Assembly (NCBI GenBank): GCA_013334765.1
Contig: JAAXWW010000001.1
Span: 39,816 to 103,815 of the forward strand
DNA from: Candidatus Moraniibacteriota bacterium
GTDB taxonomy: Bacteria; Patescibacteriota; Minisyncoccia; Moranbacterales; UBA2206
Direction of reading: 5' to 3'
DNA: 64,000 nucleotides
Notes under the pieces: generated by a model
Databases searched by the model: none
What the model saw: only the letters and a program-made list of their open reading frames with translations
What the model was told of the DNA's origin: nothing
Program-made: the position numbers and the translations under genes
Shown here: piece by piece, positions 15,682 through 23,827 of the stretch
Layout: each line of letters begins with the position of its first letter
How positions within the stretch are numbered: position 1 is the first letter of the stretch

Positions 15682-15756
15682 GCGGGTGTCGTATAGTGGC
15701 TATTATATCAGCCTTCCAAGCTGAGGAGGGGGGTTCGATTCCCCCTACCCGCTCCA
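15682..15756 (+). tRNA. tRNA-Gly (anticodon TCC), CCA encoded
   Basis: Acceptor GCGGGTG/TACCCGC. Anticodon stem TCAGC/GCTGA with loop CTTCCAA. T-arm GGGGG-TTCGATT-CCCCC. Discriminator T followed by CCA. Confidence 0.75.
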
Positions 15757-17510
15757 AGGACAATTTCTTGCCCCGAAACACCTAGAACAGATTGAAGAAT
15801 ATCTTGGGGCAACTTCAATTTAATATGAAGACGGAAAGGGATCATTTGATCCTTTTTTCGTTTCCCAGCGATGATGTCGGCATTCTCTACTGGTCGAGAA
15901 TATACAACGATTTCATCAATGAGAGAATGCAGTAGCGTGTAAGTATCAGCTCTGTTTTCTGCTATGTTGTCGAGAGTATGGATATATTTTTGAGAAAACA
16001 GCTCCAGAGTCTTTTCATAACCCTGCGAAAGTGAATTTTCGGAAATTCGGCGGTCAATTTCTTCAATATCTTTTTTATATTTTATTTCAACATCATTCAA
16101 TTCCTTATATCGCCTGCCAAGTTCTGTTCCATCTATTACGCTCAAAGAGTGTTGCTCTCTCAATCTCTCCTTACGATTTGGAAGAGCATTTATCAATTTA
16201 GCCATTCCTTCACGTTGCATGCTTAACTGCTTCAATGCGACTCTTGATGATTGCAGTTTTCTTTGATGATTATAGGTTGCAAGAGGATTTGCCAAAAGCC
16301 TTTTACTGAAGCCTACTATATACTCTTCTATTTCTTTAGCAGGCAGTGGTATAGTATGACAAGTTGTTGAATACTTGCTAGGGTTTTTCTTTCCGCACTT
16401 ATATGAATATGTGAATTTATTACTGCCTTTTTTAAGTTCCTTTCTATCGCCAACCCAGTGCATCATTCCGGTTTTTTCTTCAGGGTTGTGGCATGCGTCG
16501 CAAGTCAAAAGGCCACTAAGAAGATAGATGTGTCCACTTTTTGTTTTTTTCTTTTCGTGTTTGGAAGACTTCAACAAACGTTGCGTTTTTTCAAATGTTA
16601 AAGGGTCGATAATTATTGGGAATTGAAATTCTCCAAGTTTCCATTCTTCTTTTGAAAGTTGTTTGCCTTTTTTCTTCTTATCATAATAGTATTTTCCGAT
16701 ATAAATTTCGTCTTGCAAAATCAATCTTATTCTTTCGGGTCTCCAAAAATTGTGCGGATTTTTCTTTTTTGTTTCACCGCTTTTTTTCTTGTGCAAAATT
16801 GCAGAGGCTTCTGGCGAAGGGTTTCCTGCGGAAGTCAGATGAGCTGCAATTTCATATGCACTTTTTTTCTCATTCAAAAACATATTGAAAATAAGCCTTA
16901 CAATAACTGCTTCCTCTTCAAGAATTTCCAAGTGCTTGTCCTTATTTTTAATGTATCCAAATACTGCAAACGAACCCATTGGGATCCCACTTTTTATTGC
17001 TTGGTTTCTGCCATCCTGAGTGCGTTGCTTTATGGTCTCAACTTCAAGCTCTGCTATTATTCCGACAATGCCAAAAATTGCCTTACCAAAAGGTGTTGTG
17101 GTGTCTATGCTTTCATTTGCTGAAATAAATTTAACACCAATTTCATCAAAAAAATCAACGATATTCAAAAGGATTTTTAGTCTTCTGGCAAAACGATCTA
17201 TTTTATATACTGCTACAACATCAAATGGCCTGTTGTCTTTCGGTGCCATTGTTAAATCCTCCATGAGCTGTGCAAAGGCTGGTCTTTCTTCGATGGGAAT
17301 TGTTCCGCTAACTCCATCGTCAATATAGATATGCTTTTCTCCTGCAAGGCTCCAAACTCCACTGCCATCTTCAAGTTTACCTTTTGACTTAATAAGATTC
17401 AAAAGGGCTTCTTTTTGCATATCTAAGCCATATTTTTCAGCCTGTTCATCGGTTGATACTCTAATATAAAGAGCGACTCTTAGGCTTTCTGGATTTGTAT
17501 TTGTTTGCAT
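15708..17510 (-). CDS. large serine recombinase (phage-type serine integrase)
   Basis: N-terminal resolvase catalytic domain (RVALYIRVSTDEQ.., catalytic Ser context). A 600-aa protein with a Cys-containing recombinase/zinc-ribbon region. The 3' end overlaps tRNA-Gly by about 49 bp. Confidence 0.85.
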   Translation of the reverse strand: MQTNTNPESLRVALYIRVSTDEQAEKYGLDMQKEALLNLIKSKGKLEDGSGVWSLAGEKHIYIDDGVSGTIPIEERPAFAQLMEDLTMAPKDNRPFDVVAVYKIDRFARRLKILLNIVDFFDEIGVKFISANESIDTTTPFGKAIFGIVGIIAELEVETIKQRTQDGRNQAIKSGIPMGSFAVFGYIKNKDKHLEILEEEAVIVRLIFNMFLNEKKSAYEIAAHLTSAGNPSPEASAILHKKKSGETKKKNPHNFWRPERIRLILQDEIYIGKYYYDKKKKGKQLSKEEWKLGEFQFPIIIDPLTFEKTQRLLKSSKHEKKKTKSGHIYLLSGLLTCDACHNPEEKTGMMHWVGDRKELKKGSNKFTYSYKCGKKNPSKYSTTCHTIPLPAKEIEEYIVGFSKRLLANPLATYNHQRKLQSSRVALKQLSMQREGMAKLINALPNRKERLREQHSLSVIDGTELGRRYKELNDVEIKYKKDIEEIDRRISENSLSQGYEKTLELFSQKYIHTLDNIAENRADTYTLLHSLIDEIVVYSRPVENADIIAGKRKKDQMIPFRLHIKLKLPQDILQSVLGVSGQEIVLGAGRGNRTPLLSLEG

Positions 17511-17750: not shown

Positions 17751-18374
17751 TTAATACTTTATGATTTTGTTAATGGCAGCAGAAGAATCATCAACACCTT
17801 TTAAATAAATTGAAAATTGATGAAATCCAGTGTTGGCATTTTTAATATATTCTCCCACAAAGTGCTTGCCGACATAAGCAGAATCCGCATTCGTAGCATT
17901 AGCAATATTTGGCTGTATCGTTGCTGATTTTTTGTCCGTATGAATAAAAATAAAAGCACTGCGTTCATTTTGCATATCATCTTTGATTGTTTGCCCCAAA
18001 GCTGTCATATCGTCAAAATTGAGATATTTAGGATCAATGACTATCCTTTCGCCAGTTCCGCCGTCGGGAATGCTCCATTTTTGAACCACTTCGTAAGGAA
18101 TTTTTTTGCTGGCCTGGGTTATAGGATTGCTGCTTTTATTATTGTTTGCTTGTGGCCGATTGGGTTGGCTTTTTGTTGCAGCTATAATTGAAGATATTAT
18201 TGGAATCCCAATCAAAATAACCAAAATTAGGACAAGCCAAGGCAGACAACCTTTTTTCTTTTTTATTACCACTTCCATTGGCTGCTGATTTTTTCCGGAA
18301 AGATCGCTTCCGCAATGTTTGCATTTGATTGCTTCGTCCTGAATTTCTTCAGAACAAAAAGAACACTTTTTCAT
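17751..18374 (-). CDS. zinc-ribbon membrane protein (hypothetical)
   Basis: N-terminal CxxC-x12-CxxC ribbon (CSFCSEE..CKHCGSD), one TM helix and a 140-aa extracytoplasmic domain. Confidence 0.5.
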   Translation of the reverse strand: MKKCSFCSEEIQDEAIKCKHCGSDLSGKNQQPMEVVIKKKKGCLPWLVLILVILIGIPIISSIIAATKSQPNRPQANNNKSSNPITQASKKIPYEVVQKWSIPDGGTGERIVIDPKYLNFDDMTALGQTIKDDMQNERSAFIFIHTDKKSATIQPNIANATNADSAYVGKHFVGEYIKNANTGFHQFSIYLKGVDDSSAAINKIIKY

Positions 18375-18933
18375 AGACTTTTCGTTTAATTTTTAAAGTG
18401 CTGGTCGGGATACACAAAACCCCGTGCCAGCTAGGTCTTGCGACCCTATATCCGTTTCCAGATATAGCCCAATCACGAGTTGCTGAACGCGGGGTTCAGT
18501 GTCGTGATTGGGTCTTGTATGCCATACCGTAAAATTTTACTTCTACGGGTTAGGCAAATTAAATTGTAACCTTATTATGCCTTATAACTGCCGAAAAGGC
18601 AAAATTTGGCTATTTTTTGACTGCTAAGAAAGGAAATGCTCTAATATGGGCAATCCTACCAAATTACTGATTAGCTCCCTTAAGGCCTAGTCAGGGAGTC
18701 TAGGAGTGAAAAACAGACGGTAATTTTTATCCAAACAAATAGTTTATTTTTGTCCGCTCGTGTCCGTTTATTTTTTTCCAAATCTGTCCCTCTTGATCCG
18801 TTTTTATTTTATACTAAATTAGGCTTATCTTGGCTCAACTCAGGGATTATTAGCACATTTTACTAAATTGAATTATTTTACTGTCCAAATGAACAAAGGA
18901 ACATAAAAAAATGATGTAAAACTGGATAAAAAT

Positions 18934-19467: not shown

Positions 19468-19543
19468 AAAAGTGACGATTTTATGCGATTTGATTATTAA
19501 CGCCTATACGGTGAATTTCTTTGTCTATATTGTAGCATATCAA

Positions 19544-19598
19544 GATTAAATTGTATTTTTCATTGATATTTATATTGTGGGGTAGAAATTTGCCGATC
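19544..19598. repeat. ~55-bp direct repeat, copy 1 (second copy at 21447..21500)
   Basis: AAGATTAAATTGTATTTTTCATTGATATTTATATTGTGGGGTAGAAATTTGCCG versus AAGACTAAATTGTATTTTTCATTGATATT-ATATTTCGGGGTAGGAATTTGCCG. Confidence 0.7.
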
Positions 19599-19761
19599 CA
19601 AAAATTTCTCATTTTGCAACCTAACGAAGCCTAACTTTTTTAATATAAAAATTCTATTTTAATTGTATTATGTCATACAACGTCAAGATATTATTGGAAT
19701 GTTGATTTTTTAGTATAGCTGTGCTTTATTAGATTAAGGTCTTGGTAAACACATTATAATA

Positions 19762-20550
19762 ATGTATAATAATAATATGGCAAAAGCGAAAAAAGAAACA
19801 AGAAAGAAATCTTTTAAATACGGAAAAAACTACCTTTCTAAGGTAATTTTGAGGTTGGATTTTGATAAAATAGAATTGGGATCACTCGAAAATTTTCATA
19901 ATGATGAGTTAAAGAAATTCTTTCCATTATTTGCTGAGAAAAAAGATCTTGAAATTGGTCTTTCGGGAGATTTAGTTTCTAATAAAATAAGTCAGACCAG
20001 AAATGAATCCGTATCCTATGTCTTTGAAAACTCGGAGAAAACGAAACGCTTTAGAGTTGGAGAAAGATATGTTTTTATTGAATATGACAAGTATAGTAAT
20101 TCCGAAGAATTATACAAAGATATAAAAGTAGTTATTGATAGATTTATTTTAACTTTTGGTGTAAAAACAATAAACAGGTTGGGATTAAGGTATATAAATG
20201 AGATAAAATTGAAAGAACCGAATGCTTTAGATTGGAAAAATTACATAAATAAAGATCTGCTAGGTGGTTTAAATTTTTCCAAAAATGAAATTCTTTCCCG
20301 TTCTTTAAGTCAGCTCGTTTTTAAAAAAGACAAGGGTGATATGTCTTTTACCTATGGAGTATTTAATAAAGAATTTCCAAGCGAGATAAACATTAAAGAG
20401 TTCATACTTGATTTTGATTGCCATTCAATCTTGCCTTTTGAGCTTTTAGAAGAAAACATTCTAAATAGAATAGAACTATATCATTCTCATATAGAGGACT
20501 TATTTGAAAAGTGTATAACGCAGAAATTTCGTGATTTTTTAAATAAATAA
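19762..20550 (+). CDS. hypothetical protein (island cargo)
   Basis: 262-aa ORF with a basic N-terminus and an internal GLRYIN segment. I half-recall this signature from an uncharacterised protein family but cannot confirm it. Confidence 0.5.
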   Translation: MYNNNMAKAKKETRKKSFKYGKNYLSKVILRLDFDKIELGSLENFHNDELKKFFPLFAEKKDLEIGLSGDLVSNKISQTRNESVSYVFENSEKTKRFRVGERYVFIEYDKYSNSEELYKDIKVVIDRFILTFGVKTINRLGLRYINEIKLKEPNALDWKNYINKDLLGGLNFSKNEILSRSLSQLVFKKDKGDMSFTYGVFNKEFPSEINIKEFILDFDCHSILPFELLEENILNRIELYHSHIEDLFEKCITQKFRDFLNK

Positions 20551-20563
20551 CTAGCTAGCTATT

Positions 20564-20761
20564 ATGTTAGGAAAATCATCTTCTGAAAATTACAGAGATA
20601 TCTTTGAAGATAAGGCTGATGAATACTCCAAAAAAGATAATTCTGAAACAAGGGATTTTTCTGGAACCATAAATTTATTTACATCTGGAACAAACAAAGA
20701 GAGGTATGTAATTAGAAAGGCTACTGTTGAAAAACATCTTTATGTTCGAAAGTCAAATTAA
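20564..20761 (+). CDS. small ORF (65 aa), overlaps the start of the next ORF in another frame; possibly the N-terminal part of a frameshifted gene
   Basis: ORF track only. It overlaps 20727..21374 by 35 nt (20727-20761), or 20 nt if the downstream gene starts at 20742. Confidence 0.3.
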   Translation: MLGKSSSENYRDIFEDKADEYSKKDNSETRDFSGTINLFTSGTNKERYVIRKATVEKHLYVRKSN

Positions 20762-21374
20762 GAAAAAGTATCAGATTTGTGGCATAAGAACTTGCCAGGG
20801 TGACATTCTTAGGGATGTCACTATTGCATTTGGGCTAGAATTGAGTGATAGCAGTGAGGGCGAAAGTGAAATTGAATTAGAACATAGGTATTATAACTAT
20901 GCAGTAGTATTGAGTCAGGACTGTGATTTAAGTAGTGATTATAATGAGAGAAATAAAAATGCAGAAATCAAGGAAAAAATAAAAAATAACGAACTGGAAG
21001 AAGAAAAAGCGATTATAAGCAATGATAAGTATTTGCCTGCTATTTTAATATGCCCAGCTTATTTATTATCTGATTTTGTAAACGGATCGCATATAACTTC
21101 TTGGAGTATGAATAGTGAGCTAAAAAACGAAAATAATCAAAAAAAGTTAAAAAGTAATAATGAATTTAAACGATATCATTACATAAGAGGCGATAGTGAT
21201 CTTGGGATACCCGAGTTAGTATTGGATTTCAAGCACTTTATGTCGGTGCCAAGGGATACTTTATATAAAATACATAATCAAGTTTATATAGCCACAATAA
21301 GCGAATTGTTCCGAGAGGAGTTGTCTCAGCGATTTTCAAACTATATTTCAAGAATAGGCTTACCAGAAATTTGA
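20727..21374 (+). CDS. hypothetical protein (island cargo)
   Basis: 215-aa ORF; alternative start at 20742 (MFESQ..). No recognised domain. Confidence 0.45.
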   Translation: MKNIFMFESQIKKKYQICGIRTCQGDILRDVTIAFGLELSDSSEGESEIELEHRYYNYAVVLSQDCDLSSDYNERNKNAEIKEKIKNNELEEEKAIISNDKYLPAILICPAYLLSDFVNGSHITSWSMNSELKNENNQKKLKSNNEFKRYHYIRGDSDLGIPELVLDFKHFMSVPRDTLYKIHNQVYIATISELFREELSQRFSNYISRIGLPEI

Positions 21375-21446
21375 GAGCTTGTTAGTTTCTGATTAAGTTA
21401 TTTGTGCCTATTCGCTGAATCTTCTTGTCTAAATCACAACAAATAA

Positions 21447-21500
21447 AGACTAAATTGTATTTTTCATTGATATTATATTTCGGGGTAGGAATTTGCCGCC
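21447..21500. repeat. ~55-bp direct repeat, copy 2
   Basis: See copy 1. It lies immediately upstream of the long palindrome. Confidence 0.7.
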
Positions 21501-21549
21501 CTCAGAAAACAAAAAACAGCCCTTAACGGGCTGTTTTTTGTTTTCTGAG
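21501..21549. terminator. 22-bp perfect inverted repeat / bidirectional terminator-like hairpin upstream of the R-M cassette
   Basis: CTCAGAAAACAAAAAACAGCCC-ttaac-GGGCTGTTTTTTGTTTTCTGAG. A degenerate direct copy lies at 23790..23830. Confidence 0.6.
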
Positions 21550-21748: not shown

Positions 21749-22585
21749 ATGGCTAAAAAAACTCAATCAAAAAGATTAACGAATCAGCATAAAAAATCTC
21801 AAGGCGTGGTTGGTATATTTGGAAATGAAGCAAGGTCGCATGATATAACAGTTGGTAAGATTTCACATCTTGTAACCGAACAGCTTGAAAAGGAATTTCC
21901 TCGATTATCTTTTAGATATAGAACGGGTATAAAAAAGAAAGAAATAAACGAAGCCTTAAAGAAAGTTGATTCAGAATTAGGGCAAACCATTTTTGTATTA
22001 AATTCAAGCATTAAGCCTGATGGAGGAATAATAGAAGTGAAAGACGATAATGGTATTTGGAGAGTAGTACTCGTAACGGAAGCTAAACATCAAGGAAAAG
22101 ACATTGAAAATATCCAAAAAGGAAATCTGGTTGGCAAGAATAACGATCAAGATTTGATGGCTGCTGGCAATGCAATAGAAAGATCGCATAAAAACATATC
22201 AGAAATTGCCAACTTTATGCTGCATGAATCCCATTTTCCTTACATCTTATTTCTGGAAGGATCAAATTTTATTACTGAAACCATTTCAATTAAAAGACCT
22301 GACGGAAGAGCAGTTACCCTTGATTATAACTCAGGCATGCTGAATAGATTAGACAGATTGACTTCTGCGAATTATGGAATGCCAATTAATACCAATTTAT
22401 GCAAAAATAAATTTGTTAAGCATAAAGATAAAACAATTATGCTTCAAGCAGCTTCGATATATACACAAGGCAATGGAGGAAAATGGGATAAAAAAGAAAT
22501 GTTCGACATTATGGTGGAAACTTCAAAAGTCTCTCTTCAGGTACTGGGAAGTGAAATATTTAAACAAATAACCAAGCGCAAATAA
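21749..22585 (+). CDS. ecoRIR: type II restriction endonuclease, EcoRI family (predicted GAATTC specificity)
   Basis: 278 aa, alignable from memory along its whole length with R.EcoRI: SQGVVGIFG, LSFRYR, EINEALKK, SSIKPDGGIIEVKDD, EAKHQGKD (the PD..D/ExK active site), DQDLMAAGNAIERSHKNISEIANFML, SHFPY.LFLEGSNF, NSG.LNRLDRLT.ANYGMPIN, IMLQAASIYTQG. Confidence 0.85.
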   Translation: MAKKTQSKRLTNQHKKSQGVVGIFGNEARSHDITVGKISHLVTEQLEKEFPRLSFRYRTGIKKKEINEALKKVDSELGQTIFVLNSSIKPDGGIIEVKDDNGIWRVVLVTEAKHQGKDIENIQKGNLVGKNNDQDLMAAGNAIERSHKNISEIANFMLHESHFPYILFLEGSNFITETISIKRPDGRAVTLDYNSGMLNRLDRLTSANYGMPINTNLCKNKFVKHKDKTIMLQAASIYTQGNGGKWDKKEMFDIMVETSKVSLQVLGSEIFKQITKRK

Positions 22586-22622: not shown

Positions 22623-23723
22623 TTGATAATGGCAAGGAACGCAACAAACAAATTATTGCAAAAAGCTAAAGAGTCAAAGAGTGACGAGTTTTACACTCAA
22701 CTTTCAGATATAGAAAGCGAATTGCAATATTATAAAGATCATTTTAAAGGCAAGGTGGTTTTTTGTAATTGTGATGATCCTGGAACTAGCAACTTTTTTA
22801 AGTATTTTGCCTCAAACTTCAAAGAATTAGGACTTAAAAAATTAATATCTGCTTGTTATAGAAGACAAGAAAGAAATTTATTCAATACTAAAGAATATGA
22901 AAGCGGTTTTTTTTATGAATATTCAGGTGCTAAAGTCGAAAAAACTAAGCCAAGTTTAAATGAGGTTGTTCATTTTAAAGGGGACGGGGATTTCCGTAGC
23001 GCTGAAAGCATTGAGCTGCTGAAACGATCCGATATAGTTGTCACTAATCCGCCATTTTCATTATTCAGGGAATACGTAGAACAATTAATTAGATACGATA
23101 AGAAATTTTTGGTAATCGGTAATATTAATGCTATTACCTATAAAGAAATTTTTAAATTAATCAAGGGAAACAAAGCGTGGTTGGGAATAAATCTAGGTAG
23201 GGGAATTTCAGGTTTTATTGTGCCGGAACATTATGAGCTTTACGGTACAGAAGCTCGTATTGATAATCTTGGGAATAGGGTAGTTTCACCGAATAATTGT
23301 TTATGGCTAACAAATCTAGACACCCCCAAAAGGCATGAGGACATGACTCTTGCAAAAAGCTATTTTGGAAACGAAATTGAGTATCCTCGTTACGATAACT
23401 ATGATGGAATCAATGTGAATAAAACAAAAGACATTCCTTCGGATTATTCAGGTGTTATGGGTGTGCCTATAACCTTTTTGCATAAATACAATCCAGAACA
23501 GTTTGAAATAATCAAATTCAGAAAAGGAAATGATGAAAAGGATTTATCAATAAATGGAAAATGTCCATATTTTAGGATTCTAATCAAAAATAAGCGGATA
23601 CAGGAAAGTGAAAAAAAGAATCGCCGAGGTGAAAGGGAAATTGAGAGGTATCTTAAAAATCCTATTGAAATTACTGTAAGAGGTAATGCTTATGATTTTG
23701 AAGGTCCCTTATTGAGTTTGTAG
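22623..23723 (+). CDS. ecoRIM: N6-adenine DNA methyltransferase, M.EcoRI-like
   Basis: The N-terminus MARNATNKLL.KAK.SKSDEFYTQ, CNCDDP, SNFFKYFA.NFK.LGLKKLIS, DIVVTNPPFSLFREY (the NPPF motif), GRG.SGFIVPEHYELYGTEARID and KCPYFRILIKNKR all match my recollection of M.EcoRI. The probable start is the ATG at 22629. The gene lies about 40 bp downstream of R, on the same strand as in the EcoRI system. Confidence 0.8.
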   Translation: MIMARNATNKLLQKAKESKSDEFYTQLSDIESELQYYKDHFKGKVVFCNCDDPGTSNFFKYFASNFKELGLKKLISACYRRQERNLFNTKEYESGFFYEYSGAKVEKTKPSLNEVVHFKGDGDFRSAESIELLKRSDIVVTNPPFSLFREYVEQLIRYDKKFLVIGNINAITYKEIFKLIKGNKAWLGINLGRGISGFIVPEHYELYGTEARIDNLGNRVVSPNNCLWLTNLDTPKRHEDMTLAKSYFGNEIEYPRYDNYDGINVNKTKDIPSDYSGVMGVPITFLHKYNPEQFEIIKFRKGNDEKDLSINGKCPYFRILIKNKRIQESEKKNRRGEREIERYLKNPIEITVRGNAYDFEGPLLSL

Positions 23724-23798
23724 TCTGTCGGACAGCTTTTGTTGAAGAGGTTGGGTTCTAGTTTACCCTAACCGCATTAACTAACCAGCTCACAAAAC

Positions 23799-23827
23799 AA
23801 AAAACAGTCCTTTGAGGGCTGTTTTTC
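23799..23827 (+). terminator. intrinsic terminator after the methyltransferase gene; degenerate copy of the 21501 palindrome
   Basis: AAAAACAGTCC-tttga-GGGCTGTTTTT with one G-U pair. The left flank CTCACAAAACAAAAAACAG matches CTCAGAAAACAAAAAACAG. Confidence 0.6.

Follow-up and report, generated by a model that had tools for sequence, protein, structure and literature searches.

A conserved three-gene operon encoding a TIGR04255 protein and a MazF/CcdB-fold protein in a tRNA-Gly island of a Candidatus Moraniibacteriota bacterium: a candidate tripartite toxin-antitoxin module

We describe here three adjacent genes, designated A, B and C, in a 64,000-nucleotide stretch of a Candidatus Moraniibacteriota genome (assembly GCA_013334765.1, contig JAAXWW010000001.1, positions 39,816 to 103,815; hereafter the window), and show that they form a single conserved and horizontally mobile operon found in both bacteria and archaea. 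Gene A encodes a member of the TIGR04255 family, gene B a small protein whose N-terminal part varies and whose basic C-terminal motif is conserved, and gene C a putative effector with a predicted MazF/Kid/CcdB fold. We consider it somewhat probable that A-B-C is a self-contained, horizontally transferred tripartite toxin-antitoxin (TA) or abortive-infection module, with C acting as the toxin, B as the candidate antitoxin, and A as a regulator or sensor. We favor this interpretation because of the fold of C, the tight coupling of the genes, their sporadic distribution across two domains of life, their frequent location in genomic islands, and the rapid evolution of B. An initial annotation of the region had guessed that these genes have defence or abortive-infection functions, and the general appearance of a selfish or defence-type module is supported by the fold that C is predicted to share with MazF, Kid, CcdB and ToxN.

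Open reading frames (ORFs) are present on the forward strand at 19762-20550 (262 amino acids; aa), 20564-20761 (65 aa) and 20727-21374 (215 aa), in agreement with the coordinates first reported, and comparison with homologues suggests revised start codons for two of them. Gene A most likely begins at the ATG at 19777 (19777..20550, 257 aa), as in the public annotation and its homologues, with an alternative upstream ATG at 19762 giving the 262-aa product; the public protein identical to A carries the TIGR04255 name. Gene C probably begins at the ATG at 20742 (MFESQIK...; 20742..21374, 210 aa), and the TTG at 20727 would then be 15 nt too far upstream. All of the C homologues begin MF(E/K/R)SxIK, and the public protein HGB08_00375 is identical to C taken from the ATG at 20742. 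With this start, the last 20 nt of gene B (20564..20761, 65 aa) are read in a second frame as the beginning of C.

To determine the distribution of the operon we scanned 185,579 genomes, one per species, and found 228 containing a relative of C, the best 80 loci of which were analyzed. The homologues of C (136 at E ≤ 1e-3) are nearly all 180–215 aa long and cover 90–98% of the query. An iterative profile search places a member of the A family immediately upstream of C on the same strand in 74 of the 74 loci with sufficient flanking sequence, all of which hold the order A-B-C, and no C without A was seen among the loci analyzed. The interval between A and C is filled by a small same-strand ORF in 79 of the 80 loci. 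In 70 of 73 loci a single forward frame lacks stop codons across the 140 nt past the end of A, and over the same interval 72 of 219 forward frames are open, compared with 28 of 219 (13%) in the reverse-strand control. The homologues of C, the match of A to TIGR04255, and the open-frame control thus establish that these genes exceed chance ORFs. Gene A often overlaps B by 4–20 nt, and the B/C junction varies among loci from a 32-nt overlap to a 3-nt gap; this variability argues against a conserved frameshift site and is consistent with B being translationally coupled to C, in keeping with the suggestion of programmed coupling made for the 65-aa and 215-aa ORFs.

The same arrangement of approximately 250-aa, 60–75-aa and 190-aa products recurs in bacteria of the Candidate Phyla Radiation (CPR), in a Ferruginibacter genome, and on a Methylocystis plasmid. 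The analyzed loci come from more than 15 phyla of bacteria and from several orders of archaea, with C relatives present in CPR, Proteobacteria, Bacteroidota, Planctomycetota, Nitrospirota, Spirochaetota and Acidobacteriota, as well as in methanogens, anaerobic methanotrophic archaea (ANME) and Nanoarchaeota. Among the carriers are the cultured strains Duganella flavida FT135W, Desulfuromusa kysingii DSM 7343 and Methylocystis iwaonis SD4, the last of which has the operon on a plasmid (NZ_CP143318.1, 29547-31075), and the toxin-module hypothesis is therefore directly testable. At two Candidatus Gracilibacteria loci (L044 and L047) only short fragments of A and C are seen under translation table 11, and L047 yielded no B ORF. 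Gracilibacteria lineages read UGA as Gly (code 25), and the A and C genes at these loci are therefore probably intact.

Gene C offers the clearest indication of function. A fold search with C returned only MazF/CcdB-type barrels, those of the MazF/Kid/CcdB/ToxN toxins, and the model contains the SH3-like barrel typical of MazF, Kid and CcdB; C is thus predicted to be an enlarged member of this structural superfamily, with the link being at the level of the fold only. The barrel aligns to about half of C, and the rest consists of helices: a long one of 22 residues that follows strand 2 as an insertion, and additional ones towards the C-terminus. Every solved protein with this fold is a growth-arresting toxin. 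Among 33 diverse C sequences 21 positions are invariant, including residues within QGDI, SQDCD, CP, RxH and DFK, and the mean column identity is 41%. The SQDCDL segment singled out in the initial annotation is the most conserved motif, with Q59, C61 and D62 all invariant. In a by-eye alignment the C motifs are collinear with those of PemK/MazF, with (R/Q)GD(I/V) before strand 1, VVLS ending strand 2, and (C/V)P on strand 3, and in the same comparison, made with published MazF and Kid sequences, the invariant D162 of C falls at the acidic position represented by D75 of Kid and by the (D/E)Q of MazF. We also considered a PD-(D/E)xK nuclease site formed by D62...D162-F-K164, but dropped it because the fold search gives MazF/CcdB-type barrels only; the fold of C, for which a nuclease-like site of Cys/His positions had been suggested in the initial annotation, is neither that of PD-(D/E)xK nor that of HNH nucleases.

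The product of gene B has a median length of 62 aa among its relatives, and independent pipelines call it as a gene of 60–75 aa. The N-terminal part lacks conservation and has a biased composition, and B is probably largely disordered. The last 20 or so residues contain a Tyr followed by Lys/Arg alternating with hydrophobic residues (...KERYVIRKATVEKHLYVRKSN in the window; KERYVIRKATVEKHLYVRK, EKYIKTQVKVKTTEYEIKD and YGIGKPRRIVIRAKLIHD are further examples), although the extreme C-terminus is not conserved. This Tyr lies 11–23 residues from the C-terminal end in 65 of 74 unique sequences, 57 of which also have at least four Lys/Arg in the last 20 residues. The median isoelectric point (pI) is 9.9 for the last 22 residues and 5.1 for the N-terminal part. 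No match to B was found in Pfam, NCBIfam, PADLOC or PHROGs, nor was a DNA-binding domain identified. Good conservation of A and C, alongside a B protein in which just one motif of some 20 residues is maintained, is a pattern typical for TA modules.

Gene A matches NCBIfam TIGR04255 over essentially the full length of the profile (residues 20–260 against profile positions 2–251 of 252) with a score of 96.4 bits, well above the curated cutoff of 30 (E = 2.3e-27). The three genes had been reported as uncharacterised, and this holds in that none matches Pfam, PADLOC or PHROGs (for A, with either the single protein or the whole alignment), although A is recognizable as TIGR04255; beyond this family the sequence-profile searches, run with single proteins and with whole alignments, identified no known family. 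Searching with a profile of A plus related sequences retrieves 10,964 clusters (50% identity level) at E ≤ 1e-3; 735 of these reach E ≤ 1e-30, the stronger level at which the C-linked members score. A profile search with A found nothing among PDB sequences. The AlphaFold2 model of A is confident (pLDDT 92, pTM 0.86), and its secondary structure contains two copies of a strand-helix-strand-strand-strand(-strand)-helix unit, the topology of the TBP repeat. We therefore predict that A has an internally duplicated TBP-like alpha/beta fold without a close solved relative, noting that scores in the fold search are low and that TBP and AdoMetDC score equally to proteins of the phosphagen-kinase/glutamine-synthetase-like class. 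The mean column identity is 38%, and the best-conserved residues are in RLGLRYINEI (R134, G136, R138, Y139 and N141) and FILDFD (D212 and D214), located on two central strands.

The data establish how the genes are built and linked, how well they are conserved, their folds and their mobility; the toxicity of C and the parts played by B and A are inferred. By analogy with systems that have related folds, C would arrest growth either by cutting RNA, as do MazF, Kid and ToxN, or by poisoning an essential enzyme, as does CcdB. B, which would be made just before C, is the most likely candidate to neutralize it, with its basic C-terminal strand docking onto C in the manner of the tails of MazE, Kis and CcdA. 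A would then be an obligatory third component that supplies the regulatory or sensing function missing from B, perhaps by binding to an operator or other nucleic acid, or by sensing a cue of infection or stress that frees C.

In its presumed mode of action A-B-C is most like MazEF/Kis-Kid or CcdAB, but its sequence, its kind of partner and its catalytic residues, as aligned by eye, place it outside those families. Relative to MazE-MazF and Kis-Kid (PemI-PemK), C is twice the size owing to the inserted and C-terminal helices, has neither a Pfam PemK match nor significant profile similarity, and, in the by-eye alignment, does not conserve the catalytic Arg and Thr; moreover, the antitoxins of those systems contain AbrB or ribbon-helix-helix (RHH) DNA-binding domains that were not found in B, and A is an additional obligatory gene. 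The gyrase-poisoning CcdA-CcdB system has two genes rather than three, C has no sequence similarity to it, and there is no CcdA-like partner. Type III systems (ToxN/AbiQ/CptN) rely on an antitoxin RNA that is made of tandem repeats and encoded upstream of the toxin gene, whereas here the upstream region is protein-coding. A search for tandem repeats between 19000 and 22000 with Tandem Repeats Finder gave only trivial low-scoring repeats and Rfam has no match within the cassette, which together with the conserved upstream ORF argue against a type III RNA antitoxin. The order of a large first gene, a small neutralizer and a toxin resembles three-component TA operons that have a separate regulator, omega-epsilon-zeta and PaaR2-PaaA2-ParE2, or a chaperone, HigB-HigA-SecB (TAC); a neutralizer with no DNA-binding domain is also the logic of omega-epsilon-zeta. 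However, none of the components is homologous to those of these systems, and A is unlike omega (RHH), PaaR (helix-turn-helix) or SecB.

There are precedents for both predicted folds in antiphage systems. The antiphage toxin RnlA has TBP-like domains beside an RNase domain (PMC8266594), and GajC of 'type II Gabija' is a defence effector containing a split MazF-like domain with a helical insertion (PMC13069673). These systems differ from A-B-C in that RnlA of RnlA/LsoA is not among the structural matches of A, and that the partner of GajC is a UvrD-type helicase rather than a TIGR04255 protein. No match to A, B or C of the window was found in PADLOC-DB v2.0.0.

Several observations weigh against the interpretation of A-B-C as a toxin module. 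When the motifs are aligned by eye, C does not appear to conserve the canonical catalytic Arg of MazF at the start of strand 2 or the Thr that follows the strand-3 Pro, and has Y/N and an aromatic residue (CPAY/F) at these positions. None of the 33 C members matches any toxin family in Pfam, PADLOC or PHROGs; PF02452 (PemK_toxin) is not matched by any of them even at E ≤ 5, and the only PADLOC match is a marginal one to AbiLii (E = 0.05). NCBIfam gives only a meaningless sub-threshold match of C to HypF (11.4 bits against a cutoff of 466), the C profile finds nothing among PDB sequences, and an hhalign comparison of the C family with a small alignment of five MazF/Kid/ChpBK sequences gave a non-significant probability of 0.5%. 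C is mildly acidic, with a median pI of 6.4, which is unusual for an RNA-binding toxin, and the basic tail of B could equally bind A or nucleic acid. The C family was not found in 50,697 phage records and is present in only one of 72,556 plasmids, and defence genes constitute a small minority of the genes immediately upstream of the cassettes.

Some of the same features fit a non-toxic role, in which A-B-C is a nucleic-acid-handling or regulatory complex carried on mobile elements – for example in RNA processing, anti-defence or maintenance – with the barrel of C serving as a binding scaffold only. The lack of conservation of the MazF catalytic residues in the by-eye alignment, the acidic to neutral character of C, the presence of many loci amid housekeeping genes, and the absence of defence or TA profile matches would all be accommodated, and yet we regard this as an unlikely explanation overall. 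We give no greater credence to a type VII-like arrangement in which A would be an ATP-using enzyme of the phosphagen-kinase/glutamine-synthetase-like fold class that switches the toxin on or off by covalently modifying C, or B at a site such as its near-invariant Tyr. The kinase- and ligase-like fold matches of the A model point in this direction, but their scores are low and equalled by TBP and AdoMetDC, no nucleotide-binding motif or family match was found for A, and the R138-D214 pair could simply be a structural salt bridge. A Pup-like ligation is also unlikely because the extreme C-terminus of B is not conserved.

It is less probable still that A is an unrelated passenger of a conventional type II TA pair formed by B and C. 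The small gene does precede the larger one in the usual antitoxin-toxin order with overlapping codons, TIGR04255 proteins also occur with other downstream partners, and the family is far larger than its C-linked subset (10,964 clusters compared with 735 at E ≤ 1e-30). However, the presence of A upstream of C in all 74 testable loci of both domains, often overlapping B, is not expected of a passenger, and a module composed of B and C alone would be missing the usual autoregulator, as B lacks a DNA-binding domain. We can attach almost no weight to the possibility of B and C being two parts of a gene interrupted by a sequencing error or programmed frameshift, or to that of the module being an accessory of the EcoRI-like restriction-modification (R-M) system located 375 nt downstream. 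The overlap of B and C in different frames had suggested a frameshifted gene of about 280 aa, but the C homologues are complete at 180–215 aa and share a conserved N-terminus, and 79 of 80 loci have B and C as distinct genes whose junctions include a 3-nt gap; a single gene, whether frameshifted or fused, is thus ruled out by the lengths of the homologues, the separate conservation of the two genes, and the variable junction. A tripartite toxin module remains our preferred reading.

The relationship to the R-M system deserves further comment, as the proximity of the two was a prominent feature of the initial annotation. A-B-C ends 375 nt upstream of the gene for the EcoRI-family endonuclease (21749-22585, forward strand; Pfam EcoRI 1.4e-148, PADLOC REase_II), which is followed by the EcoRI-family methyltransferase gene (22623-23723, forward strand; Pfam EcoRI_methylase 3.9e-131, PADLOC MTase_II). 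A functional link is not borne out, with a terminator hairpin located between the two units and the R-M pair absent from almost all of the other loci. The nearest relative, L001 (85% identity in C), is a syntenic serine-recombinase island containing the recombinase, A-B-C and the right-hand repeat described below, and where the window has the R-M pair downstream of A-B-C, it carries another gene. A survey of 134 upstream neighbours, reported as raw counts, shows them to be heterogeneous, with no family recurring more than twice; two of the 134 are N6_Mtase genes. There is thus no recurrent R-M partner and there are few defence-like neighbours, and neither conserved co-occurrence nor co-transcription with R-M genes was found. 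The hairpin, the different gene content of L001 and the heterogeneous neighbours therefore indicate that the closeness of A-B-C to the R-M genes is incidental, and that the cassette behaves as a stand-alone mobile module.

The cassette is its own transcription unit. A promoter-like site (TTGGTA-17-TATAAT, 19742..19770, forward strand; 10/12 in a consensus scan) is positioned directly 5' of A, and if used would generate an mRNA with almost no leader ahead of A; such sites are not enriched relative to shuffled sequence, and this one is therefore weak evidence. At the other end, a perfect 22-bp inverted repeat (21501..21549, 100% complementary) with A- and T-run flanks forms a bidirectional terminator-like hairpin that closes the A-B-C unit and parts it from the R-M pair. 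A second hairpin at 23788-23826, after the R-M pair, is 90% similar to the first, and both contain AAAACAGCCC...GGGCTGTTTT with A- and T-run flanks; the A-B-C and R-M cargo modules of the island thus appear to share a common terminator element.

A-B-C is also bracketed by two forward-strand copies of a direct repeat of about 110 nt, the left at 19487..19598 and the right at 21391..21500, beginning 17 nt past the C stop codon. Their starts are 1904 nt apart and they are approximately 78% identical over their length, rising to near identity in a 3' core of about 55 nt; a 23-nt segment of the core occurs exactly twice in the window, where none is expected. The right copy is kept downstream of C in L001, the nucleotide alignment with which extends to window position 21494. 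A metagenome scan with a 21-nt core gave five matches and was uninformative. The repeat may mark the junction of a cassette or the scar of a recombination event, or it may be a shared element with a regulatory role.

The genomic settings of the relatives vary, and mobile elements or defence genes recur among them, a point in favour of the toxin-module reading. The cassette shares an island with a serine recombinase in the window and in several other loci, and further settings include insertion sequence elements with an antitoxin, AbiE, an AbiJ-like gene, nearby Fic and MazE genes, and prophage tail genes. In one CPR contig (L091, 7083-8558) A-B-C is positioned between ribosomal-protein genes (S5 and others) and secY, which is unusual for a mobile module; many of the ribosomal genes on this contig are called in pieces, and the quality of the assembly is doubtful. 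Location within a ribosomal-protein/secY operon is as expected of an autonomous, addictive cassette. In two CPR serine-recombinase islands, a DUF4238 protein of 308–315 aa is encoded adjacent to the cassette (L001 3615-4541 and L097 6698-7645, both on the reverse strand). It has no match in PADLOC, and no conserved fourth partner emerged from the 134 upstream neighbours.

None of the papers in the collection searched mentions TIGR04255, and keyword searches brought up analogies only; the present reading provides a first, testable hypothesis of function for this large NCBI-named family, which has no characterized member. We speculate, with considerably more reserve than for A-B-C itself, that TIGR04255 proteins supply the sensor or regulator subunit shared by a so far unrecognized class of bacterial and archaeal systems, modular in build and serving as toxins or in abortive infection. 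A-B-C – with a TIGR04255 subunit linked through a disordered micro-protein to an enlarged MazF/CcdB branch – would be the best-defined type of this class, and other TIGR04255 operons would contain different effectors. Distant TIGR04255 proteins do come first in other tight operons. One (L096, 5001-6775) is encoded together with 212-aa and 122-aa proteins, the smaller of which has a weak sub-threshold hint of HEPN (E = 0.0095); another (L105, 1088-3123) is in a tight operon with 299-aa and 122-aa proteins; and a third (L099, 3644-4946), on a Thermus brockianus megaplasmid, has a 147-aa partner and lies next to VapBC and Cas6. No mutual similarity was found among the partner proteins of these three operons. 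As thin evidence, they fit a role for A as a shared module with variable effectors.

Whatever its activity, C defines a predicted, unannotated and enlarged branch of the MazF/CcdB toxin superfamily that is present in bacteria and archaea, including CPR and methanogens. If A-B-C is a toxin module, it would add a tripartite architecture – a TBP-like protein, a disordered micro-protein, and an effector with the MazF fold – to the TA and abortive-infection systems already known. None of its three components is caught by the profiles now used for annotation and for finding defence genes.

In the window, A-B-C is part of an island of about 8 kb (approximately 15.72–23.78 kb) integrated into a tRNA-Gly gene. 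The island has a GC content of 29–37%, compared with 45–51% in its flanks, and is bounded on one side by the tRNA-Gly gene (15682-15756). At its far end, just past the methylase stop codon, is a degenerate copy of the tRNA 3' end (23743-23775; about 80% identity over 33 nt), and it is from these two elements that the limits of the island are drawn. The tRNA, GC, Pfam and PADLOC data together uphold the original description of a tRNA-borne island with an R-M system directly downstream of A-B-C. The other members of the island are a large serine recombinase gene (15708-17510, reverse strand; Pfam Resolvase, Recombinase and Zn_ribbon_recom), the 3' end of which overlaps the tRNA-Gly gene, a zinc-ribbon/transmembrane gene (17751-18374, reverse strand), and a gene for an unknown 147-aa protein. 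A LOOT RNA (Rfam RF03000) is located within the island at 18433-18556 on the reverse strand, directly upstream of the zinc-ribbon/transmembrane gene; its score is 79.9 bits (E = 3e-14), where the gathering score is 46.4.

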